Positions 10,764 through 59,684 of a stretch of 64,000 bases of DNA are shown here, piece by piece. The position numbers and the translations under genes are program-made. Source of the DNA: a virus (Duplodnaviria; Caudoviricetes); the IMG/VR virus record IMGVR_UViG_3300025707_000003, positions 32,001 through 96,000 of that record; one strand, 5' to 3'. The first letter of the stretch is position 1. The number at the start of each line of letters is the position of its first letter. The notes under the pieces were generated by a model. That model worked only from the letters and a program-made list of their open reading frames with translations, ran no database searches and was not told where the DNA came from.

Positions 10764-11636
10764 TTAAATCTCTTCAATGACATAGTTAAGTTTAGTTCTA
10801 AGTCGCTTACCACTAGATGCGAGATATTGAAACGACTCCTCAGAAGCACCAAGTTGACGAATAATACTTTTTCGCTCATCTTCATCTAGGTATCCGAACG
10901 CTTCAAGAACTTGCTTCTCACTCCACCCTCTCTCCTCATAAAGATACTCATAAGGGTACTGTTTAAGAGCTTTCTCGATCTCTTCTTCTGCTTCTCCCAT
11001 AAGATCATTGCGGGCAGACTCTGGTAACTCGTTCAACATATTATTATAGTCAAATACCATTACTTCTGCACGATCAGAATAAAGACGATTGATCTCTCCA
11101 TTAACTTCTGGATCCATCCTCGCTTCCCAATAAGCCAGCTCCTCTTCATATGACTCTTTCTTTTCGGTCAAATCTGCCCTCTCAAGGATTTCGTCATCGT
11201 CTAAGTCTTCGATTTGTTCCTCCGCCCATTGAGTAGCCCACATTCCAATATCACCGTAAGGTAGACTCGCAGTGGTTACAATGATGTCTCTTGCCCAAGG
11301 CACTCTTACAACCACTTCTTTAACAGAATGGTTATCGAGCATCTCATCCATGATCTCTTCATTCATCTGTGTCTTAACATCATCATCCTCATAGATGATG
11401 TAATCACTCCAATCAGAAGAAACCAAGATCACATCTTTATGACCTTGAAAGTATTCCCAGACTTGACCGTTTCTTCTCTCTTTAAGATCAGACCTAGTTT
11501 GGGCTTTAGTTTCTCGACTTTCAACTAGAACTTCTAAAGCCCAAGTTATCCATTGAGGTTCTTTCTTAGATTGCTTTTCAAGTTGGGCAATCCTATTCTC
11601 AAGTTTATTAATGATTTCTGATGCTGATTTTCTCAT
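10764..11636 (-). CDS. Leader-family protein (MRKSASEIINKLENRIAQLE) with acidic cargo domain
   Basis: Shared N-terminal leader; aaatggagaaaaatcATG translation initiation region. Confidence 0.8.
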   Translation of the reverse strand: MRKSASEIINKLENRIAQLEKQSKKEPQWITWALEVLVESRETKAQTRSDLKERRNGQVWEYFQGHKDVILVSSDWSDYIIYEDDDVKTQMNEEIMDEMLDNHSVKEVVVRVPWARDIIVTTASLPYGDIGMWATQWAEEQIEDLDDDEILERADLTEKKESYEEELAYWEARMDPEVNGEINRLYSDRAEVMVFDYNNMLNELPESARNDLMGEAEEEIEKALKQYPYEYLYEERGWSEKQVLEAFGYLDEDERKSIIRQLGASEESFQYLASSGKRLRTKLNYVIEEI

Positions 11637-11663
11637 GATTTTTCTCCATTTGATTAAAATAAA

Positions 11664-12071
11664 TTAGTACGCACCCTTGATGCTTTTGATCTCTGATTTG
11701 ACTTCTTCATGTAGGTCATACCATCGATCAGAGATGGAAGCATAAAAGCGATCCTCTCTCATTGAAAATGAAGGCATACTCTCTAATGCTTGCTCCAGCT
11801 CTTGCATCGCTTCAAGAACTTTGACTGCACTCTCTCTTACAGATAATTGACGAGCAGTCTTGTTTCCCTTGTACTCAGGAGTTTTACGATACTCTTTAAC
11901 GAGTCTTTCGTATTCTTCATTTTGAGACTTGGTGAGATTATCATCGTCTTCAAGTTTTTGCAGGTCATCAAGTCTCGACCTGTCTTTTTTAGACATAGTG
12001 TGTGCTGATATTTCAAGTTGTGCGATTCTTGATTCAAGATCCCTGAGTACTTCACTTGCTGATTTTCTCAT
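11664..12071 (-). CDS. Leader-family protein (MRKSASEVLRDLESRIAQLE), 135 aa
   Basis: Start reassigned to ATG 12071 after aaatggagg; C-terminal ~60 aa resemble the C-terminus of 42383..43147. Confidence 0.8.
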   Translation of the reverse strand: MRKSASEVLRDLESRIAQLEISAHTMSKKDRSRLDDLQKLEDDDNLTKSQNEEYERLVKEYRKTPEYKGNKTARQLSVRESAVKVLEAMQELEQALESMPSFSMREDRFYASISDRWYDLHEEVKSEIKSIKGAY

Positions 12072-12148
12072 AAGAGTCCTCCATTTTTGGCTAGGGTTGC
12101 TGAGATTATATAAGTATAATAATAGATAAACTATCAAAGGATTAGCAT

Positions 12149-13123
12149 ATGATAAAGCTACTATGGAGAACAGATGTCCACATGGGAGATAAAACCCCAC
12201 GCAGACGCACTGGAAACTGGACGGATGATGTGGTCAACAAGCTCAAGTGGATTGGTGATCTCGCTAAGGATAAAGAGATTGACGCTGTACTTGATGGTGG
12301 AGACTTCTTTGATGTCAAATCACCCACCAAGAATAGCCATAGTTTAGTCCGTAAGGCTTGTGACGCACATGAGGGGTATCCTTGCCCTACTTATGGTCTA
12401 GTCGGCAACCACGATGTAAAATATGGCAATATAGACTACCTACCCGAACAACCTCTAGGAGTCCTATTCTCATCGGGTGTCTTTAAGCAGTTTGGCGATG
12501 ATGTAGAAATAAACTTTGAAAAAGATGGGGTCAAAGTTCGTGTAGTCGGTGTGCCTTATCATGGTGTCATTTATGACTTTGATCGGATCAAGAACATAAA
12601 AAAGAAAGACGAGGATTACCTACTAGTCGCTAGCCACCTCCTCGCTCGACAAGGTAAGACTGGATCAATGTTTGAGAATGAGGATATAGTTGGATATGAC
12701 TTCCTTAATGAGAACACAGAAGTAGACGCTTGGTTCTTTGGTCATTGGCACAAAGATCAAGGCATCTCCACGCTCTTAAATGGAGCAAGGGTTGTCAATG
12801 TAGGGTCATTAACAAGAGGTTCTTTACACCTTGATGACTTAGACCGTAGACCTTGTGTGGTAGAGGTTCAAGCCACCAAAGAGTCGCTTAACTTCATCAG
12901 ACACGATGTTCCTGTACGAGATGCCAATGAGGTATTCAAGATCGAGGAAACTGTGCGTGAAAAGGAAGATAAGCAACGAATGATCGACATTGTAGACAAG
13001 ATGAAAGCAGTAGCCACATCGGGTTGGTCTGAACTTACTCTTAAAGAGCGTGTAATGCAGACTATGGGTTCAAATGGAGCTAAGGAAATGGCTATCTCTT
13101 ATCTTGAACAAGTCGAGGATTAA
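12149..13123 (+). CDS. SbcD/Mre11-like metallophosphoesterase nuclease
   Basis: Calcineurin-like motifs DVH, GDFFD, GNHD, GHWH and VNVGSL. Confidence 0.8.
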   Translation: MIKLLWRTDVHMGDKTPRRRTGNWTDDVVNKLKWIGDLAKDKEIDAVLDGGDFFDVKSPTKNSHSLVRKACDAHEGYPCPTYGLVGNHDVKYGNIDYLPEQPLGVLFSSGVFKQFGDDVEINFEKDGVKVRVVGVPYHGVIYDFDRIKNIKKKDEDYLLVASHLLARQGKTGSMFENEDIVGYDFLNENTEVDAWFFGHWHKDQGISTLLNGARVVNVGSLTRGSLHLDDLDRRPCVVEVQATKESLNFIRHDVPVRDANEVFKIEETVREKEDKQRMIDIVDKMKAVATSGWSELTLKERVMQTMGSNGAKEMAISYLEQVED

Positions 13124-13124
13124 G
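13088..13124. repeat. 37 bp direct repeat copy 1 (3' end of SbcD-like gene)
   Basis: atggctatctcttatcttgaacaagtcgaggattaag; copy 2 at 13614-13650 has 2 mismatches. Confidence 0.95.
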
Positions 13125-13125
13125 A

Positions 13126-13512
13126 TTAAAGACTTTTAAGATAATCTAAAATGTCTTCATCTCTTCTTAATCCGTTTGGTTGGCCTTGGTCATGGTAGAT
13201 AATCTCGATTAAGTCGGTTGCGATAAGCACCTGGTCTTTTCTCGGTCTTTCCATAGACATACCAACTACATAACTATGATCAATGTCATCACTAGTTGAG
13301 AAGTGGTTAAAGATTTCGCCTTTTGACATGAAATAAGTTTTCATTCTGCGACCTCCACCATCTTGACCGTACTTATCTTTAAATGGTGCGAAGAGGGTAA
13401 ATTGCCCTTGCCCAAGAGCTTCCCTAGCTGGGTGCTTTCGGCCTGCTTGTCTTTCAAGTCTTGCAATCCTTGACTCAAGATTACGAATAACTTCGGTTGC
13501 TGATCTTCTCAT
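13126..13512 (-). CDS. Leader-family protein (MRRSATEVIRNLESRIARLERQA), 128 aa
   Basis: Start reassigned to ATG 13512; conserved UTR and class A motif at 13560-13572. Confidence 0.8.
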   Translation of the reverse strand: MRRSATEVIRNLESRIARLERQAGRKHPAREALGQGQFTLFAPFKDKYGQDGGGRRMKTYFMSKGEIFNHFSTSDDIDHSYVVGMSMERPRKDQVLIATDLIEIIYHDQGQPNGLRRDEDILDYLKSL

Positions 13513-13613
13513 GGTTTTCTCCATTTTGTTTGTGGTTAAAGAGATCACTTATGAGAACCTATAAAAGAACTATTAAAACAAGAAATAGATAAAAGTAGGA
13601 ATAAGGGGTGGGG

Positions 13614-13650
13614 ATGGCTATCTCTTATCTTGAACGAGTCGAGGACTAAG
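13614..13650. repeat. 37 bp direct repeat copy 2 (duplicate of SbcD-like gene end)
   Basis: atggctatctcttatcttgaacgagtcgaggactaag lying between two leader cassettes. Confidence 0.95.
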
Positions 13651-13653
13651 TTA

Positions 13654-14121
13654 TTAGGCTTTTGTGATGTCATAGTCTGCACGAGCCTTTAGATTGCTCT
13701 TTAGGATGCTCTGTAGTTTATTAGCACAAGAGTTATAACTTTGGCTCTCACATCCAGTAGCAACAAATACTTGATAGAGACAACTCCAACAACCACCTTG
13801 AAGATTGTCTGATCCGTCATCAAGACCCCAACTGATTTGTAGTTGACCCCCCCCTATATCAACATATGCGTATAGGCTTGTTCCTCTCTCAATGTCTCCT
13901 TCCTCGATTCCTTCTTCAAGACTGGATTTAGCAGACTCAATATCACTGTTAACTTCTGCAATAATCTCTGCAAAAGTCATGTCGGTGTTTCGATCTCTTG
14001 GGTGACCTGTGTACCAACCTGTACTGATCTTTAGACCAGAATGTTTGTTGGCAGTACGACCTTCAAGACGAGCAATCCTCATCTGAAGGTTGCGAATAAT
14101 TTCTGATGCTGATCTTTTCAT
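13654..14121 (-). CDS. Leader-family protein (MKRSASEIIRNLQMRIARLEGRTA), 155 aa
   Basis: Start reassigned to ATG 14121; conserved UTR; class A motif 14169-14181 directly after the RecD2 stop. Confidence 0.8.
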   Translation of the reverse strand: MKRSASEIIRNLQMRIARLEGRTANKHSGLKISTGWYTGHPRDRNTDMTFAEIIAEVNSDIESAKSSLEEGIEEGDIERGTSLYAYVDIGGGQLQISWGLDDGSDNLQGGCWSCLYQVFVATGCESQSYNSCANKLQSILKSNLKARADYDITKA

Positions 14122-14181
14122 GGTTTTTCTCCATTTTGTTAAGGTTAATGAGATCACTTAAGATCAATTATAAATAAACTA

Positions 14182-16260
14182 TTAAAATCTATACCTCAAC
14201 CTAGAGTACCTAAGACCACTAGACGAGTTTCCTACACAAATCGCTACTGCGTCCTTATCTCCAATCAGCACTGCCTTATCCTTCGCTCTCGTGACAGCGG
14301 TGTAGAGCAAAGAGCGTTGTAAGAGGTTTGAACTATGTTCGGTGGTCATAGGCATAATGATGGTGTCGTACTCAAGACCTTGGCTCTTATGAACAGTCGT
14401 AGCATAAGCGAGTCTCAATAGCTTCCTTACTTGATCAGAAGGGATGTCTACGATTTGATCTTTTACACCTTTGATGAGTACGCTCACGCTTGTTTTATCA
14501 ATCGACCTAATACGACCTATATCACCATTATAAACATTGAGGTCATACTCATTCTTGGTGATCATAACTCGATCACCTACTCGGATTGAATCTTTACCTA
14601 CCCGAATGAAAGCACCTCCTATATCGGGGTTCAAAGCAGATCTAAGCTCTCTGTTAAGATTAGTAACACCCACTTTGCCATGATGAGTAGGACTAACCAC
14701 ATGGAAATCTATTTGATCCATGTGAAGCTCTTTACACCGTCCCACAATTTCATCGAGAATGTCTTGTGAGGTATAACGATCAATGAACTGATAATCTTTA
14801 TTGTGTTGTGGCACTTCACCTGCATGGATCTTGTGAGCGGCAATTGTCACCCCACTCCCCTCTCCTTGCCTAAAGATTTCTGTAAGGTGTTCTCTCGGTA
14901 CTGCGTTCGACTCAATAAGTTCCGAAAGAACAAACCCTGCACCAACAGGTGGAAGCTGTGCTATATCACCTACCATGATGACTCGACACTTGGGTGAGAT
15001 GCCTTTCATCACACGCCACATGAGGTGTAAGTCAATCATAGAGGATTCGTCTATAATGACAACTGACTCTGGTCGAGGATTCTGAGGATTATGTCTCCAT
15101 AGTTCTCGACTTGGGTCATTGCTATTGCCAATACCTTTAACTCCACTTTCTTCATCTTTCTTAACCCCTTCATAATCAGACTTGTCCTTCTTATCCTCTG
15201 AGGGCAATCCTGCACCGAACGCTCTATGGACTGTGAAAGCGTCCATATTGGTTAATGCACTAGCTCGTTTAGCGGCTATTCCTGTGGGGGCGATGAGTAA
15301 GATACTTTCTTTACGATCACGCAAGATTTTACAGAGCGTATTAAGGATAGTCGTCTTACCTGTTCCTGGTAATCCTGTCACGATTGAAAAAGGCTCTATA
15401 AGACCCTGTTGGATTGCTTTGAGTTGTGTATTGGTCAATGGGTAGCGTGAATATGCTTTAATGTCATCAATACTTATTGATTGAAGCATACTATTCACTC
15501 GGAGAGGAGATTTAATTTCTTCGGCAACAGCTACCTCCATTTTATGATAAGAAGGCAAATAAAGGGCAATAGAGGAGTCTTGTGATATCTTATCTACCAC
15601 AATGCGAGTCGGCTTCGCCTCTTTCATCGACTTGATGACTTGACCTATCTCTTTCGGGTTCGTCAAGCCTGTGAGGATAGCAGTATCTTTGAATACCGTA
15701 TTTGTGTCTAAATAACAATGACCTTGATACACACCTTGAAGCATAGACCAAAAGATAGAGGCTTCAACTCGACCTTCATTTTCTGGGTCAAAGTCCTTTT
15801 TAAGAAGCGTCTTAGCAATTTCATCAGCACCTTGAAAAGAGACACCTTTATAAACCAACGACCAAGGGTTTTTAGCAATAGAACTCGGAGATATTTGAAC
15901 ATCATTCCAAATAGAGTTTATGATGTTCAAAGGCACTCCTGCTTCAGACAGACTTGAGATAACCTCGATGGACTCTTGCATAAGAGGGTCAGACCAATCT
16001 GCCCAACTGTAGAGAGCCGACCCTTTAAGATACTTAGGGTTAATCGGATTACGAACTATATCAAGGTTCTTCTTCCCATTACGCTTGTCGAGGACTTCCT
16101 TACCTTGAAAGGTAAATACTTGACCTTTTGAAACAGGGCCTGCAATCTTACCTTTGACCACGATAGGCTTTGTATCGGCCTCAGAAGCTACGATACACCT
16201 TAGAATATAATAAGGTGGGTTGGCAAAAATCTGCCCCAACACTTTGGCAACATAAAACAC
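14182..16260 (-). CDS. recD2: RecD2-like (RecD/TraA family) SF1B helicase
   Basis: Walker A GLPGTGKTT, APTGIAAKR, IIDESSM, GDIAQLPPVG, AYATTVHKSQGLEY, LLYTAVTRAK; HhH-like N-terminal region. Confidence 0.85.
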   Translation of the reverse strand: MFYVAKVLGQIFANPPYYILRCIVASEADTKPIVVKGKIAGPVSKGQVFTFQGKEVLDKRNGKKNLDIVRNPINPKYLKGSALYSWADWSDPLMQESIEVISSLSEAGVPLNIINSIWNDVQISPSSIAKNPWSLVYKGVSFQGADEIAKTLLKKDFDPENEGRVEASIFWSMLQGVYQGHCYLDTNTVFKDTAILTGLTNPKEIGQVIKSMKEAKPTRIVVDKISQDSSIALYLPSYHKMEVAVAEEIKSPLRVNSMLQSISIDDIKAYSRYPLTNTQLKAIQQGLIEPFSIVTGLPGTGKTTILNTLCKILRDRKESILLIAPTGIAAKRASALTNMDAFTVHRAFGAGLPSEDKKDKSDYEGVKKDEESGVKGIGNSNDPSRELWRHNPQNPRPESVVIIDESSMIDLHLMWRVMKGISPKCRVIMVGDIAQLPPVGAGFVLSELIESNAVPREHLTEIFRQGEGSGVTIAAHKIHAGEVPQHNKDYQFIDRYTSQDILDEIVGRCKELHMDQIDFHVVSPTHHGKVGVTNLNRELRSALNPDIGGAFIRVGKDSIRVGDRVMITKNEYDLNVYNGDIGRIRSIDKTSVSVLIKGVKDQIVDIPSDQVRKLLRLAYATTVHKSQGLEYDTIIMPMTTEHSSNLLQRSLLYTAVTRAKDKAVLIGDKDAVAICVGNSSSGLRYSRLRYRF

Positions 16261-16374: not shown

Positions 16375-16971
16375 TTATTTTAAAAGATCGAACTCTTCTT
16401 TAGTTATATCTACTGGGTAGGGGTTGGGTTTGATGAGATGAGGATGGAACTCCACAAACATCGGCCCATGACAAACCTTTTGGATTGCGTCAAGATTCTT
16501 CTGTGTGTCTTCCCAAACAGAAACACTTGTGATGTTTGGGTACTTCTTTAAGAGATCAAATACTAACTTGGCTTTATACCTCGCTGTCGATCCAGTTCCT
16601 GGCTTTAAGTGAACCTCATCAAAATCAAGACCCTTCCCCTTTAACAACTCTGCAACACGATAACGCATCGCACCATTGTCATTAGGGCGACCTGTACACA
16701 TGATCGCAAGAGTGTCCATATCAGAGATTGATCTCTTAGCCTCAGAAACAACCCCACCATACCAATAATCCCCACTTGGCTTTTGAGGGACAAAAGGTTC
16801 ACTCAAACTAATTGCCTCATTAAACCAATAGCCCATCTTTTTCTTCGACCACCACTCTGGTGGTTCGGGGCTTCTGAAGAGGGTATTGTCAAAGTCAAAT
16901 ATGTGAAGCTCAAGATTTTCTGAGCTTGTTTTCATATACTTTGTAGCAACTCTCGCAACAAGATTTCTCAT
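16375..16971 (-). CDS. HAD-family phosphatase (Swiss Army Knife RNA-repair-like HAD) with RVATKYM leader
   Basis: HIFDFDNTLFRSP motif I, CTGR motif II, VWED motif IV; paralog of the N-terminal part of 42383..43147. Confidence 0.7.
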   Translation of the reverse strand: MRNLVARVATKYMKTSSENLELHIFDFDNTLFRSPEPPEWWSKKKMGYWFNEAISLSEPFVPQKPSGDYWYGGVVSEAKRSISDMDTLAIMCTGRPNDNGAMRYRVAELLKGKGLDFDEVHLKPGTGSTARYKAKLVFDLLKKYPNITSVSVWEDTQKNLDAIQKVCHGPMFVEFHPHLIKPNPYPVDITKEEFDLLK

Positions 16972-17025: not shown

Positions 17026-17907
17026 ATGATTGTTATACTTTCTCCGACATCACAGTTAGCTACCGACACTCTTAGGGTATCAAACCCTCCTGCATTATCA
17101 GTTGAAGCAGAATATGGAGGGTTCGTCCTTGAGGGTACAAAATACACTGCCGCTCACCATCAACCTCTAGGTTCTCCTTATGTTGGAAGACACCTCACAC
17201 CCTTTGGTAGACCTGCCCCTTGTAATGATGCAGGCATACCGAAACTCAATGAAGATGAGGTCGCACTGATCTCTCATATAGACATCGACACTCTAGGTGG
17301 GCTTATGCGAGCTACAGATCAGTTCGTGGATAATGGAGTCTTTTGGTTCTATGCTGAACATATTGACACCAACGGAATCCACAAGGCAAAACAAGACCAC
17401 CCTTGTTGGGTTCTATATAATGGATTAATTGCATGGATTAACGAGAACCACCCAGAGATAGACCCGAAAAGAAACAACGATGTAACCGATTTCTGCTATC
17501 AGGCGTTCGACTTCATTAAAGAAATGCTCACTGATGGTCAGATCGCTACTCAAATGGGTAATGCTCATATCTCTATTCAAGAAAAGCTCGATGAGTCTAC
17601 CCTCGTAGAGATGCGACCCTGTGGCTTGATCGTTAGACGAACAAGAGGAGAAAAGGTAAATCATCTTTATCGTGAAGAAAATGCAGTCATAACCTTCGAT
17701 GAAAAGTATAAGAAGATTAGGATTTCTACTGCTGACCCCATTAAAAATCTATCTTGCAGACGACTCGTTCAAGAATGGTGGGGTGATCGAGCTGGTGGAC
17801 ATGATCAGATCGCAGGTTCTGCAAGAGGTCAAATCATGTCCGAAGATCAGTTTAAAGAAGCAATAGAAAGGTTTGAAACTGAACTGACTAGATCATTACA
17901 AAGGTAA
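17026..17907 (+). CDS. Hypothetical protein, possibly a DHH-like phosphoesterase
   Basis: 293 aa; HH, SHIDID and C-terminal AGGH motifs are suggestive only. Confidence 0.55.
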   Translation: MIVILSPTSQLATDTLRVSNPPALSVEAEYGGFVLEGTKYTAAHHQPLGSPYVGRHLTPFGRPAPCNDAGIPKLNEDEVALISHIDIDTLGGLMRATDQFVDNGVFWFYAEHIDTNGIHKAKQDHPCWVLYNGLIAWINENHPEIDPKRNNDVTDFCYQAFDFIKEMLTDGQIATQMGNAHISIQEKLDESTLVEMRPCGLIVRRTRGEKVNHLYREENAVITFDEKYKKIRISTADPIKNLSCRRLVQEWWGDRAGGHDQIAGSARGQIMSEDQFKEAIERFETELTRSLQR

Positions 17908-41478: not shown

Positions 41479-42198
41479 ATGAGTGGATTTTCAGATTTCA
41501 GTCTCGGTTCTCAGTCCCCAATCCTTTCAGGTGGCAAAGTACGATGGAAGCCTCAAAAGGGTAAATTTCGTGTCACTTTTGCCGCTCTTCCAGGTCTTGA
41601 GGAAGAGGATGTTAAGTTTGAGGATAGCAACGGAGATCCTACTAACCCTTCTTTTAAAGGTGGTCGTAGACTTTACGCAAAAGATGTTGGGTACTTCTTG
41701 GATCATGGGCCAGAGTATCAAAAAATCGCAGGCAACCCTTCAAAGACTTCGATTGCTACTACTTTAATCTTTTGGCCTACAGATGCTAACGGTTCATTAG
41801 ATAAGGCTCGTTTCTCCAATGGTGAGTTTGAGATCAAAACTTGGATCTTCTCACTCGACAAGTATCGTCAACTTGAGTCAATCAACACTGAGTTCCCTTT
41901 GAGTCAACATGACATTTCAATCACTGTGACTGACCCTCAGTTCCATAAGATGACCTTTGCACCCTGTAAAGAGTCTTTGTTCAAGACCTTACATGATAAG
42001 GGATCTGATATGTTCAAGACTTGTATGGAGGCTGTAAAGCCTATCCACGCAAACATCCAGAATGATATCGCTCAAGACCTCACCATTGATCAGATTCGTG
42101 AGAAGATGAGTGGCTCAGTCGGTTCTCCTACAGGCAAGAGTGGTGGTGGATTCAATTCTAGCTTTGACGCAGATGAGATTCTTGACGGTATGCTCTAA
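41479..42198 (+). CDS. Single-stranded DNA-binding protein (gp32-like), putative
   Basis: 239 aa; Gly-rich linker and acidic tail FDADEILDGML; aromatic-rich core. Confidence 0.6.
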   Translation: MSGFSDFSLGSQSPILSGGKVRWKPQKGKFRVTFAALPGLEEEDVKFEDSNGDPTNPSFKGGRRLYAKDVGYFLDHGPEYQKIAGNPSKTSIATTLIFWPTDANGSLDKARFSNGEFEIKTWIFSLDKYRQLESINTEFPLSQHDISITVTDPQFHKMTFAPCKESLFKTLHDKGSDMFKTCMEAVKPIHANIQNDIAQDLTIDQIREKMSGSVGSPTGKSGGGFNSSFDADEILDGML

Positions 42199-42200
42199 AG
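42165..42200. repeat. 36 bp direct repeat copy 1 (3' end of SSB gene)
   Basis: tgacgcagatgagattcttgacggtatgctctaaag; identical copy at 43187-43222. Confidence 0.95.
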
Positions 42201-42382: not shown

Positions 42383-43147
42383 ATGAGAGCAGTACACATC
42401 TACGATTTTGACGGGACTTTATTTAGAACTCCACAAAGACCAAACTGGTATGACAATAACTTGGATGGGGTTTGGCATCAAAACCCATTGAGTTTTGCAG
42501 AACCTTGTCTACCTAAAGGTGAGCGTTGGGTTAAGTCTATTGTTTCAGAAGCTAAGAGAAGCATCGCCTCAAAGGATGTTTACACCATCGTCCTTACAGG
42601 GCGTAAGACACCTTTTCAAAGAGTAGTTGAGGATCTTTTAAGATCAAAAGGATTAAAGTTTGATGAGGTCATCTTGAAAGACAGAGGAGATACTGAGTCT
42701 TTTAAAAACAGAGTAATAGATCGCCTTATGGCACTGTTTCCTGATGCAGAGATCCACATCTGGGAAGATAGACATAATCATTTAAAAGTATTCATGGATC
42801 ACATCGAGATGAGAGGTGGCGTTGGAATCCCTCACGCAGTACCGCAAAACTACTCGGTGGCTGAATGTTCTGAAGAGGAGTTTAGGGATATGAGAAGATC
42901 AGCATCAGAAACTATTAGAAATCTTGAGCATCGCATTGCTCGACTTGAGGGGTCTAGGACAGCTTCAAGCGATGTTCGTAGAGCTGGCAAGAAAGTTATT
43001 GAAGCAATAGACAAGCTACAGGAAGAGCTTGAGAAGATGCCTTCCTTCAACAGTGATGAGTCTTACTATGAGGATTTAAGAGAGCGTTTTGAGGCACTTC
43101 ACCTTAGCGTCCATAAAGAGGTTCAGTTCATCACAGGTGCTTACTAA
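42383..43147 (+). CDS. HAD (Swiss Army Knife-like) phosphatase fused to an internal leader (ATG 42890) and a small helical domain
   Basis: IYDFDGTLFRTP, LTGR, IWEDR; internal MRRSASETIRNLEHRIARLEGSRTAS; conserved cassette UTR at 42348-42385. Confidence 0.8.
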   Translation: MRAVHIYDFDGTLFRTPQRPNWYDNNLDGVWHQNPLSFAEPCLPKGERWVKSIVSEAKRSIASKDVYTIVLTGRKTPFQRVVEDLLRSKGLKFDEVILKDRGDTESFKNRVIDRLMALFPDAEIHIWEDRHNHLKVFMDHIEMRGGVGIPHAVPQNYSVAECSEEEFRDMRRSASETIRNLEHRIARLEGSRTASSDVRRAGKKVIEAIDKLQEELEKMPSFNSDESYYEDLRERFEALHLSVHKEVQFITGAY

Positions 43148-43186: not shown

Positions 43187-43222
43187 TGACGCAGATGAGA
43201 TTCTTGACGGTATGCTCTAAAG
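43187..43222. repeat. 36 bp direct repeat copy 2 (duplicate SSB gene end)
   Basis: Perfect match to 42165-42200. Confidence 0.95.
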
Positions 43223-53743: not shown

Positions 53744-55321
53744 ATGTCTAGGTATTCTCGTTCTAAGAATATGTCACGCAGGGCAGAACTTGCTCGTAGA
53801 AGAAATCGCAGAGCAAACTCTGCCCTTCCAGGTTCTGATAACCTCGGTTGGGATCACTTCGGTCATCCTGCCTCCTCTGATCAACCCGATGTTGACGCTT
53901 ATGGACTCGATTCAGAGTTCGGTGAAGGAGTCCGTAAAGGACCCTATCGCTCAGGCCCAGCTCCTGCCTCTGTAGGTTGGACTCCTGAACACCCTGCTTC
54001 TTCTGATGAGACCGCTGAGGATTATGCTCTTACTGATGATCTTCGCCAAGAGAATCTTAAGAAAGCTATGGAGCGTAAAGCGGCAAAGTGTATTCAAATC
54101 GCTGAATCTCGTCTTGGTCGTAGAGCTTCTCAAGTTGAAGTTGAAGATCTTGCACTACGCATGATGGATCTCCCTAATCGTACTGTTAATGCTCGTGTTG
54201 CTCGTCTTGCAGACAATGCTGTACAAGTCGGTACTGACTATGATGATGGTCTTGACTTCACAGGTCCAGGTAATGCAAGTGATGAGATTGAAGCTGATGG
54301 TCACATGGGTCATGGTATGTTCGATGAATATGACATTGACGGTGATGAAATGATCGACATGAGCGAATGGGGTGGTTCAGACTCTGCATTCAACTCTATG
54401 GATACAAACGAAGACGGATTCCTTTCTCGTGATGAAGTCGCTATGGGTCTTGGTGAGTCATTCGCTGATGATATTGAAGCTGATGATGAACTCGCAAACA
54501 TCATGGCTGAACTTGAAGCTGATGACATGGGTATGAATTCAGCAGATCAACTAGCAGAAGAAATCGCTATGCTCAAAGCGGCAAACGCTCGTCTTGCTCG
54601 CAAGGTTCGTAAGCTCGCTGATAATGCTGTACAAGTTGGCACAGACAATCCAGTTGAAGACCCAGAACTACAGATCGACACTTCTCCAGAAAATGAGCCA
54701 TCTGAAGGTCAACCTACTCAGCGTCTTGCTAAGATTGAACGACTCGCAGAAGCTCTTTCTGCTTATATGTCTGATCGTCAAGCAGGAGATGACATGGCTT
54801 CTCTTCTTGCAGAGCTTGAGGCTGATGACTCTCGTGAAATGAACGATTCAAACTTTGGTTACACTGCCGAAGAAACTGTTGAAGCTCATGATATTGAAGC
54901 TCATGAACTTGAAGCTCATGAACTTGAAGCTGATGATATTGAAGCTGATGATATTGAAACTCATATGATGGGTGAAGATGTCATGGGGCTTGATATGAAC
55001 GCTGACGATCTGATGGCTATGGATCCTCGCCTCGCTTCAATCTTTACTGCATCTGATGAAGAAGATTCTGATGAAGAAGATTCTAGCGAAGAAGATTCTA
55101 GCGAAGAAGATTCTAGCGAAGAAGAAAAGACTGAAGAAGATTCTGAAGAAGAAAAGACTGAGGAAAAGGCTAAGAAGAAAGCTTCTTATCGCCCACGCAC
55201 CTCAGCTCGTAAATCGGCAGTTAAGACTCTTGGGAACATTTCTCGTGAGGCTTCAAGAGGTTCAGACGAACTTTCTAAACTTTGGGAATCTGCTCCCGAT
55301 GTAAGCAAGTTCTTCGGATAA
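53744..55321 (+). CDS. Capsid scaffolding-like protein
   Basis: Very acidic, coiled-coil segments and internal repeats (R.ARLADNAVQVG, [IL]EA[DH]); lies between protease and capsid genes. Confidence 0.65.
   Translation: MSRYSRSKNMSRRAELARRRNRRANSALPGSDNLGWDHFGHPASSDQPDVDAYGLDSEFGEGVRKGPYRSGPAPASVGWTPEHPASSDETAEDYALTDDLRQENLKKAMERKAAKCIQIAESRLGRRASQVEVEDLALRMMDLPNRTVNARVARLADNAVQVGTDYDDGLDFTGPGNASDEIEADGHMGHGMFDEYDIDGDEMIDMSEWGGSDSAFNSMDTNEDGFLSRDEVAMGLGESFADDIEADDELANIMAELEADDMGMNSADQLAEEIAMLKAANARLARKVRKLADNAVQVGTDNPVEDPELQIDTSPENEPSEGQPTQRLAKIERLAEALSAYMSDRQAGDDMASLLAELEADDSREMNDSNFGYTAEETVEAHDIEAHELEAHELEADDIEADDIETHMMGEDVMGLDMNADDLMAMDPRLASIFTASDEEDSDEEDSSEEDSSEEDSSEEEKTEEDSEEEKTEEKAKKKASYRPRTSARKSAVKTLGNISREASRGSDELSKLWESAPDVSKFFG
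54881..54970. repeat. 15 bp tandem repeats encoding EA[HD][DE][IL]
   Basis: gaagctcatgatatt / gaagctcatgaactt / gaagctgatgatatt units, about 6 copies. Confidence 0.85.
55058..55117. repeat. 15 bp tandem repeats encoding EEDS[DS]
   Basis: gaagaagattct(gat/agc) x4. Confidence 0.9.
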
Positions 55322-57135: not shown

Positions 57136-57621
57136 ATGAACAACAATTTTGTTCCAGTTCCCACAGTAATGGAAGCCATGACAGGTTTCCTCTGTAGTAA
57201 GGCTTTTCTTATCTATCTAATTATATTTGGTGTTCTATTTTTTATATGGCTTTTTATCAAAAAAGAGAGGAGAGAAGAAGCTGATCTCTATCGAGCATTA
57301 GTGAGAGAAGTGAGAGAAAACCAAAATCTTAAGCGAAGACTAGGACAGACACCAAATGAAGAGCAAGATGATATGTACTCCAACGAGGTACTCACCTCGT
57401 CATATGATTTATGCGAATCATATACCAAAGATATCAAATGGAGAAACGCAGGTCTCAGACATGATATAAAAATACTAAACATCGAGGATAAAGAGACACT
57501 ATTGAAAGCGAAGGCTCTACTTTTGTACTTAACTACCTCGGAGAAACAAACCCCACAATTTATTGAGGGTGTTCAGAAAACGCTCAAGGTTATTACGATC
57601 CTAGAAAAGAGTGTAAGATGA
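57136..57621 (+). CDS. Hypothetical membrane protein
   Basis: 161 aa with one TM helix (FLIYLIIFGVLFFIWLFI); AAGGAG RBS. Confidence 0.65.
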   Translation: MNNNFVPVPTVMEAMTGFLCSKAFLIYLIIFGVLFFIWLFIKKERREEADLYRALVREVRENQNLKRRLGQTPNEEQDDMYSNEVLTSSYDLCESYTKDIKWRNAGLRHDIKILNIEDKETLLKAKALLLYLTTSEKQTPQFIEGVQKTLKVITILEKSVR

Positions 57622-58529
57622 GAGCGATACCATGCCCTATATCTAAAGAGCGTTTTGAAGACCTCTATACTAAACAATACTTAACAGAGAAGCAGATTAA
57701 CGAGTTGTTGATTTCTGAGGGTATTGACTCAAGCATGAAGCGTATTGGTAGTTGGAGACTACGCTATGGGATTGAAACGGTATCTAAGTTTGATCGTCTT
57801 GAGCTACCAAAGATTGAGGGGGAGTTAAGATCAATCCTTATTGGTTCTATGCTAGGTGACGGTCGTATTGTTTTTCGTACTAACGCTTCACACTATGAGG
57901 AACGACACGCACCCAATCAGAAAGAGTATCTTGAGTGGAAGCAAGAGAAGTGGGGCGTGTGGTCATCTGGAGATTTAGCAGTAGCGATGAGTAGGGAGTT
58001 CCCTAGTTATATCTTTCGCACCCACGCTCACCCTATGCTAAATGAGTATCGAGACTTGTTCTATGAGGAGAGGGATAAGGGGTGGAAAGTTGTTAAGTCT
58101 GATGTTATAGACCAAGTAGATGAGTTAGCTTTGGCTATGTGGTATCTCGATGATGGTCATGCAGGACATTGGCCTATGATTTGTTTTGGGGCAAAACAGG
58201 GGAGTCGAGCTAACGCTTACTTAATCTTTGAGAAGTTTGGTTTAGCCCCTAACTGGACACATAAAAAAGGGGAGACAGGAGAGTTCCACTTTAAGGGTGA
58301 GAACGCTTATCGTTTCATTGAGATCATTAAGCCTCATGTACCCGATTGTATGTCTTACAAGTTGGACTTTGGTTTTCAAGGTCGTAACAATGCTATCAAG
58401 AAAAAGATGGACAAAGGCATCTTAGAGGACTTAAGGAGTAAGGGGTGGGGTAAGCGTAGGATAGCTAGGTATCTTGATGTAGGGGCGAGTACAGTGGGTC
58501 GTTGGATGGTTAAGTTTGGAGTGGAGTGA
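57618..58529 (+). CDS. Free-standing LAGLIDADG homing endonuclease with HTH extensions
   Basis: LIGSMLGDGRI and LAMWYLDDG motifs; terminal HTH-like segments. Confidence 0.8.
   Translation: MRAIPCPISKERFEDLYTKQYLTEKQINELLISEGIDSSMKRIGSWRLRYGIETVSKFDRLELPKIEGELRSILIGSMLGDGRIVFRTNASHYEERHAPNQKEYLEWKQEKWGVWSSGDLAVAMSREFPSYIFRTHAHPMLNEYRDLFYEERDKGWKVVKSDVIDQVDELALAMWYLDDGHAGHWPMICFGAKQGSRANAYLIFEKFGLAPNWTHKKGETGEFHFKGENAYRFIEIIKPHVPDCMSYKLDFGFQGRNNAIKKKMDKGILEDLRSKGWGKRRIARYLDVGASTVGRWMVKFGVE
58474..58529. repeat. 56 bp direct repeat copy 1 (3' end of LAGLIDADG gene)
   Basis: Copies at 58942-58997 (3 mismatches), 59583-59616 (34 bp, perfect) and 61341-61358 (16/18). Confidence 0.95.
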
Positions 58530-58941: not shown

Positions 58942-58997
58942 TTGATGTAGGGGCGAGTACAGTGAGTCGTTGGATGGTTAAGTTTGGGGTGGATTGA
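58942..58997. repeat. Direct repeat copy 2 of the LAGLIDADG gene end
   Basis: ttgatgtaggggcgagtacagtgagtcgttggatggttaagtttggggtggattga. Confidence 0.95.
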
Positions 58998-59044: not shown

Positions 59045-59575
59045 ATGAGACTTACTATCGCTTTACTCTTATCTGTCTTGCTCACCTCTACGATTTCTCA
59101 CGCTGAAGAGAATAACTGGGAAGTGAGTCTAGGCACAACGCAAATGTTCATCGGTGGGTACGAAGAGGGTTCAATACCTGTACCTACGAACTCTGCCACA
59201 TTCATCTTATCTCGTAAGATGTATGAGAGCTTTGCATTATGGGTTGTGTTCAATCTACCTACCTCCTCTAACAAAAGGTTTACAGAGGAAGGTTTACTTG
59301 TAGAGTCTCAGACACCACCTAGTCTTATGCTAGGTGCGAGTTATGAGTTATTGGGCTATGAGATCTCCGACAAGAAATCTTTAGGTCTTGATGTTGGTGC
59401 TTCAGTCGGACACACGATTACGCTTAATGGTCAGTTCTTCCCTGTGGGTGCGTTTCGTTTGAAGTTCGTTAAAGACGAGGACAGCACTATGTATGCAGGG
59501 GTGACAACCTCACCATATAATCCAGATGGTGATTTGGTTTGGGGTTTGATCTATGGCATGGGGTATAGATTTTAA
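59045..59575 (+). CDS. Secreted protein, possibly an outer-membrane beta-barrel
   Basis: Sec signal peptide (…TISHA), alternating beta-strand pattern, C-terminal YGMGYRF with terminal Phe; class A motif at 59002-59014. Confidence 0.6.
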   Translation: MRLTIALLLSVLLTSTISHAEENNWEVSLGTTQMFIGGYEEGSIPVPTNSATFILSRKMYESFALWVVFNLPTSSNKRFTEEGLLVESQTPPSLMLGASYELLGYEISDKKSLGLDVGASVGHTITLNGQFFPVGAFRLKFVKDEDSTMYAGVTTSPYNPDGDLVWGLIYGMGYRF

Positions 59576-59582
59576 TGTGAGT

Positions 59583-59616
59583 GCGAGTACAGTGGGTCGT
59601 TGGATGGTTAAGTTTG
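59583..59616. repeat. Direct repeat copy 3 of the LAGLIDADG gene end
   Basis: gcgagtacagtgggtcgttggatggttaagtttg. Confidence 0.95.
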
Positions 59617-59684
59617 AGGTTTTGTAGTTTCTTTATAATAGATCTTAAGTGATCTCTTTAACCTTAATCAAATGGAGAACCATT

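Follow-up and report, generated by a model that had tools for sequence, protein, structure and literature searches.

A duplicated SbcD-like gene end as the probable scar of out-of-register recombination in a cassette slot of a giant marine phage

The window, by which the whole 64-kb stretch of viral DNA under analysis is meant, corresponds to bases 5058-69057, read on the minus strand, of an IMG/VR virus contig 83 kb long; because CheckV puts the completeness of that contig at about 27%, it is a fragment of a phage of roughly 300 kb. At the locus described here, two small cassette genes, termed P1 and P2, converge from the minus strand on an SbcD-like gene, and a helicase gene lies beyond them. 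The last bases of the SbcD-like gene (its tail) occur twice, once in place and once between the two cassettes. The features, in order along the window, are as follows.

12149-13123, plus strand: gene for an SbcD/Mre11-family metallophosphoesterase of 324 aa (Pfam Metallophos, E 1.3e-11; PHROG 100 'SbcD-like', E 1.8e-10)
13088-13124, plus strand: repeat copy 1, the working SbcD gene end, contiguous with the P1 3' end as in the related locus L042
13126-13512, minus strand: cassette P1, 128 aa, consisting of the common N-terminal leader of about 22 aa and a cargo, with no Pfam or PHROG family
13513-13578, minus strand: 5'UTR, ribosome-binding site and promoter module of P1, the same module as at other leader genes (repeat families D1-D3)
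13579-13613, no strand assigned: 35-nt stretch upstream of the P1 promoter, unique in the window (single match), ending at the joint between 13613 and 13614
13614-13650, plus strand: repeat copy 2, an orphan SbcD gene end against the P2 3' end, with CGA as in all relatives
13654-14121, minus strand: cassette P2, 155 aa, with the same leader and a Cys-rich cargo, the counterpart of the SbcD-abutting cassette of the related locus L010; no Pfam or PHROG match
14122-14181, minus strand: 5'UTR and promoter module of P2, abutting the helicase stop codon
14182-16260, minus strand: RecD2/Dda-like SF1 helicase gene (Pfam AAA_30, UvrD_C_2, SH3_13 and HHH_RecD2; PHROG 4412, E 3e-100)

The leader of about 22 residues begins at least 11 open reading frames of the window, most of which stand behind the same module of promoter, 5'UTR and ribosome-binding site; for this comparison, the upstream regions of 11 leader genes were set side by side and compared by eye. 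The likeness between P1 and P2 is confined to the leader, and their cargos are unrelated. On the left of the slot, the C-terminal Y-L-E motif of the SbcD-like protein is kept in nearly all relatives, and on the right the helicase gene forms a conserved border, with 79-86% nucleotide identity in the related loci L009, L010 and L046. The promoter module starts with TAATAG or a near variant (upstream of 14121(-), 13512(-), 36440(+), 63095(+) and others), and the gene before it often terminates at one of the two stops within TAATAG, such that gene ends are fused to module starts. No terminator-like hairpin, intrinsic terminator or sigma-70-like promoter was found in 12900-14300.

An earlier note on this DNA had reported a 37-bp duplication of the SbcD gene end, and its coordinates prove right: 35 of the 37 bases are identical between 13088-13124 and 13614-13650, and both differences are the ones it gave, namely CAA in copy 1 against CGA in copy 2, and GAT in copy 1 against GAC in copy 2. 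Copy 1 extends from the ATG of Met313 in the 324-aa reading frame to one base past the stop; the repeat thus comprises the final 11 codons, the stop and one further base of the SbcD-like gene. Within the window, a pattern search at up to three mismatches returns only the sites at 13088 and 13614, and two matches arose in none of 100 dinucleotide-preserving shuffles of the window. The gene positions likewise bear out the description of a repeat that brackets P1 and its promoter, with P2 directly beyond. The solid repeat is 37 nt long and has sharp edges, because neither flank aligns better than shuffled sequence; for the left flanks (60 nt) of the two copies, 878 of 2000 shuffles align as well. 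Two longer alignments were considered and set aside, namely a repeat-finder extension to 55 nt at 84% on the right side, which was no better than shuffles, and a gapped MAFFT match left of the repeat, which failed to beat shuffled sequence. Copy 2 also has a perfect inverted match of 14 nt (17761-17774), which by a rough estimate is at chance level for an 8-kb region.

The same order of SbcD-like gene, tail, P1, tail, P2 and helicase is found in two further contigs, a MEGAHIT contig from one ENA sample (L040; 99.4% identity over 3430 nt) and a SPAdes contig from another (L041; 100% identity over 2423 nt). For an unrelated seawater run of 2020, Logan contigs cross 13045-13515 in full agreement with the window and 13547-14076 with two differences, and the stretch is present in 20 listed marine runs from 13 studies. 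L040 can be regarded as a separate strain that shares the structure of the window, because it differs from the window at 21 sites, 19 of which lie inside the helicase gene. These 19 sites fall in window positions 14440-16098, many of them in clusters, and none of the 21 lies in 12878-14439; the clustering suggests a possible recombination tract in the helicase gene. Misassembly, which the earlier note had itself named as fatal to its proposal, is ruled out by the three assemblies from different assemblers together with the contigs of the 2020 run. The concrete form that such an artefact might have taken, two strain variants wrongly joined at a common 22-nt word, draws some plausibility from a source metagenome with several co-existing slot variants and is nevertheless scarcely credible, given the agreement of those assemblies, the same structure in a strain with 21 differences elsewhere, and the spanning of each junction by single contigs of an unrelated run.

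A comparison across related genomes, the check that had been proposed for this locus, returned a single tail throughout. Twenty-nine related SbcD loci (42-97% protein identity) were searched for a second copy of their own last 36 nt, with up to 8 mismatches in 36 allowed and within about 4 kb on either side, and none of the 29 has one; the tail of L046 is likewise single. The contigs that carry the SbcD relatives come from aquatic metagenomes and are 226-381 kb long. Other searches were largely empty: the phage GenBank collection holds no DNA match to 11500-15000, an exact tail search of viral contigs gave no match, a peptide-seeded search of viral contigs for the P1 and P2 cargos gave no relatives, and an exact look-up of the SbcD protein gave no record. 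A degenerate tail pattern searched against metagenome contigs returned only L046 and L045, the latter being the same phage as L009.

The contents of the slot between the SbcD-like gene and the helicase differ in every close relative (window, L009, L010 and L046). In L010 (95% SbcD identity), a P2-type cassette, with 54% amino acid identity to P2 over 145 residues, overlaps the SbcD stop and is followed by two genes of about 400 aa each. In L046, a 245-aa cassette ending K-A-stop lies against SbcD, and between it and the helicase come another cassette and then three other genes; the border between the two cassettes is directly at the promoter module, with no tail copy. In L042 and L043, P1 homologs stand directly against SbcD, with cargos at 80-83% nucleotide identity, and a large protein search returned P1 homologs at 73-81% amino acid identity. 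The junction from copy 1 across the stop into P1 is identical to that of L042 and collinear with those of L042 and L043. With P1-type cassettes against SbcD in some relatives (L042, L043) and P2-type cassettes in others (L010, L046), the slot exists in two natural versions, both of which the window carries in tandem.

Two further relatives illustrate how cassettes may be lost and moved. L009 and L045 (97% SbcD identity) have no cassette body; their SbcD stop is followed by GATTAAAGA and then by a cassette 5'UTR and promoter. The latter lies at 4973-5020 in L009, where it forms an orphan 5'UTR and promoter that has no ribosome-binding site, leader or cargo and points antisense into SbcD. As L009 resembles the window minus about 410 nt between two TTAAAGA words (13126-13132 and 13536-13542), it looks like the product of a microhomology deletion that would have removed a P1-type cassette. 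In L044, at about 195-225 of the reverse complement, the neighbour of a P1 homolog is the promoter of another cassette and not SbcD, yet 'GGATTAA' from the very end of the SbcD gene is retained beyond the stop of the homolog; to judge from this remnant, cassettes evidently carry pieces of adjoining gene ends with them.

Gene-end duplications occur elsewhere in the window as well. A perfect 36-nt duplication (42165-42200 and 43187-43222) comprises the end of gene 41479-42198, with its last codons, stop and three bases, and its copies bracket a self-promoted gene at 42383-43147; in the relatives L047 and L048 the tail at 42165-42200 is single-copy. A LAGLIDADG endonuclease gene (57618-58529) has its terminal 56 nt in three copies, at 58474-58529, 58942-58997 and 59572-59627 (100%, 95% and 80%), and these copies are interleaved with cassettes. 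That two of the three duplications in the window measure 36-37 nt hints at a process less random than chance breakpoints, three cases being a number that proves nothing. Two observations may be added on the genes and repeats of these regions. The HAD_SAK_1 domain (the RNA-repair 'Swiss Army Knife' HAD family) is present in two genes, 16375-16971 and 42383-43147, in the second of which it is fused upstream of an internal copy of the leader. Runs of a 15-nt tandem repeat at 54258-55177, inside the open reading frame 53744-55321, encode acidic five-residue repeats.

The reading that we prefer, at a probability of roughly 0.6, is that the orphan copy is a recombination scar, left by one out-of-register recombination between the two slot versions and having no working part itself. 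The gap between the SbcD-like gene and the helicase would be a fast-changing slot for self-promoted cassettes, each composed of promoter, 5'UTR, leader and variable cargo. A mixed infection would bring a P1-version and a P2-version genome together. On the SbcD side, exchange would take place in homologous SbcD sequence, or the SbcD gene of the P1-version would simply be kept; on the other side, an illegitimate joint (13613/13614) would link the sequence 35 nt upstream of the P1 promoter to a position in the P2-version that precedes the SbcD stop by 36 nt. The resulting genome would contain P1 and P2 in tandem, with two copies of the final 37 nt of SbcD. Copy 1 would be complete because only products with an intact SbcD end, including the Y-L-E motif, would be viable. 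The right edge of the repeat would lie at the gene end because the two versions cease to be alike there, and the left edge would be the illegitimate breakpoint itself; sharp edges without flanking similarity are expected for the combination of an illegitimate joint and a border between conserved gene and variable cargo. In this sequence of steps, we infer the mixed infection, the single event and its direction.

Several observations argue for such a scar. Copy 1 meets P1 as in L042 and L043, which makes this a native junction, and copy 2 lies against P2 in an arrangement close to that of L010 and L046. The joint at 13613/13614, where the unique 35 nt meet the ATG of copy 2, is the only one without a counterpart in relatives, and its outer side is the one where shuffled flanks align as well as the real ones. 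One-version relatives hold the tail in single copy. The core of the earlier proposal, that recombination with a related phage genome duplicated the 3' end of the gene, is therefore supported by the 29 single-tail loci and by the presence of both versions among relatives. Regarding the parents, the searches returned no donor genome that includes the complete upstream sequence of a P1-type cassette; the available L043 flank covers 35 nt and is too diverged, its likeness to the P1 flank being marginal (115 of 2000 shuffles score equally). P2 shares only 54% protein identity with its counterparts, and a recent P2-version parent is therefore not among the sequences seen.

Contig data from individual runs bear on the diversity of the slot. 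In run X10, contig depth is about 19 over the SbcD and helicase flanks and 5-7 over P1 and P2, and other contigs diverge right after the SbcD stop; the depth contrast and the divergence fit several co-existing slot versions. A contig joining 13087 to 13614, as in a deletion or empty-site allele, is absent from the contigs of four runs, in which rare variants are dropped. Three other apparent joints, 13512/14143, 13565/14095 and 14121/13537, are read as other leader cassettes matching across the common module and not as rearrangements.

The two substitutions between the copies carry less information than had been supposed. CGA is found in all five relatives that have the tail, which makes the CAA of copy 1 private, and the GAC of copy 2 is found in none of the five and is thus private as well. 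The earlier argument for allelic variants as opposed to decay, which rested on the kept frame and stop, has no force: two substitutions cannot shift the frame and seldom hit the stop. With one private change in each copy, drift after duplication would fit equally well as an allelic origin.

A possible, if unlikely, route to the same arrangement is the integration of a circle, composed of the SbcD tail, P1, its promoter and the 35 nt, that arose from a P1-version and entered a P2-version by Campbell-type crossover in the 37-nt tail. The product would be identical to the observed structure, and the length of 36-37 nt in two cases would fit a minimal homology for phage recombinases. Against this, 37 nt is a very short target, two events are needed as compared with one for the linear model, and the making of the circle itself requires an illegitimate joint; the contigs, a weak test, contain neither a circle junction nor a deletion allele. 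Precedent exists in the T4-type phages phi1 and RB49, in which small circles arise by recombination between conserved regulatory cassettes and are apparently packaged (PMC2839356).

An extension of the circle model, improbable in our estimation, would treat the gene-end scraps (36-56 nt, three in the 64-kb window) not as passive scars but as portable homology 'addresses', by which cassette circles would re-insert, with the help of the phage's own recombination system, at the same gene end in any related co-infecting phage. If true, it would amount to an integrase-free, integron-like spread of tagged cargo genes among giant marine phages.

Equally improbable is a tandem duplication, within one genome, of tail, cassette and promoter, followed by the swapping of one cargo with another phage via the homologies of tail and leader/promoter. 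The layout would allow such swapping, each unit lying between the tail and a conserved module of about 126 nt (D1-D3), and one private change per tail copy fits the age that such an origin implies. However, at least two events are needed, and the non-coding tail copy is 95% identical whereas the leader/promoter modules are at about 76-80%. The 35 nt after the P1 promoter should moreover match the 3' end of the helicase gene, and by eye they bear no resemblance to it; the P1 and P2 units accordingly differ in what lies to their right. Nor does a simple duplication of one cassette account for the pair, because P1 and P2 share only the leader.

The duplication of a target site or att site by a transposase or site-specific integrase at the SbcD gene end is very improbable and already largely refuted. 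It would account for direct repeats around an inserted gene and for an insert at a gene 3' end, where many integrative elements are found. Insertion by a transposon or insertion sequence leaves terminal inverted repeats and a short duplication of 2-15 bp; here no inverted repeats with arms at 13125 and 13613 were found, 37 nt far exceeds transposon target duplications, and what was inserted amounts to one 128-aa gene under the standard promoter module of the phage itself. The absence of any integrase or transposase nearby, as had been claimed, is borne out by Pfam and PHROG scans of the open reading frames at about 1-25.9 kb (on a contig holding about 27% of the genome), which revealed no integrase, transposase or homing endonuclease within about 10 kb; the matches across this range were to tail fibre, SbcD-like, RecD-like, HAD, SNF2, GHKL ATPase and RNR proteins.

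It is just as improbable that the orphan copy is functional, either as an 11-codon mini-gene (M-A-I-S-Y-L-E-R-V-E-D) that mimics the SbcD C-terminus or as an RNA element in the P2 3'UTR. Copy 2 does start exactly at an ATG and keep the stop, a G-rich, ribosome-binding-like AAGGGGTGGGG precedes it and is absent before copy 1, and the Y-L-E motif that it would encode is the conserved one. Yet no plus-strand promoter was found, the mini-gene occurs in no relative, no Rfam family matches the region, the fold of the antisense of copy 2 with its flank is unremarkable (z = -1.76), and two substitutions over 37 nt are too few for a test of selection.

If out-of-register recombination did produce the locus, the scar would be a dated record of giant marine phages stacking leader-tagged small genes beside replication and repair genes, by sloppy recombination between slot versions and not via a dedicated mobile-element enzyme. 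The 37-nt direct repeats are predicted to be able to recombine in turn, excising the P1 unit precisely as a 526-bp circle and leaving SbcD followed by P2. Gene-end scraps can serve as markers of cassette traffic between phage lineages and predict which cassettes can be precisely lost.

Among the closest known systems is PeSL modular shuffling, which takes place in hyperplastic regions of T4-type phage genomes (Arbiol et al., 2010, PMC2839356; Comeau et al., 2014, PMC4122927). As there, conserved core genes enclose a cluster of small orphan genes, each preceded by a conserved regulatory cassette; among close relatives, these small genes are inserted, deleted or replaced by recombination without a dedicated enzyme, with excision as small circles possible. 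Variable open reading frames behind conserved promoter modules and the gain, loss and swapping of whole cassettes are all found at the present locus. The module here, however, consists of promoter, 5'UTR and a 22-codon leader, whereas that of PeSL consists of an early promoter and a terminator stem-loop, and the repeat here is a scrap of a neighbouring conserved gene and not a regulatory cassette. The scar adds little new principle beyond the T4-type hyperplastic regions.

The joint itself resembles homology-facilitated illegitimate recombination, or an unequal crossover between alleles, as reportedly described by de Vries and Wackernagel in 2002 for bacterial transformation: one anchor is homologous (SbcD), one joint is without homology, and foreign DNA is stacked by resident DNA with a short stretch of the anchor end duplicated. 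Unlike in the bacterial case, the partners here would be two co-infecting giant phage genomes. The T-even internal-protein (Ip) loci offer a parallel in their variable small genes that have a common short N-terminal leader and are exchanged at a fixed locus, although the present leader has no sequence similarity to the T4 capsid targeting sequence. Integron gene cassettes, too, are single promoter-adjacent genes that are arrayed at one fixed site and separated by short repeats; in contrast to integrons, the locus lacks both an integrase and an attC-like folded site, each of its cassettes has its own promoter in place of a common external one, and the repeat, a piece of a neighbouring gene, is absent from normal cassette borders (as in L046). 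In summary, the locus is to be classed as a probable scar in a hyperplastic cassette slot, akin to the modular shuffling of T4-type phages and to homology-anchored illegitimate recombination, and formed with no dedicated enzyme.
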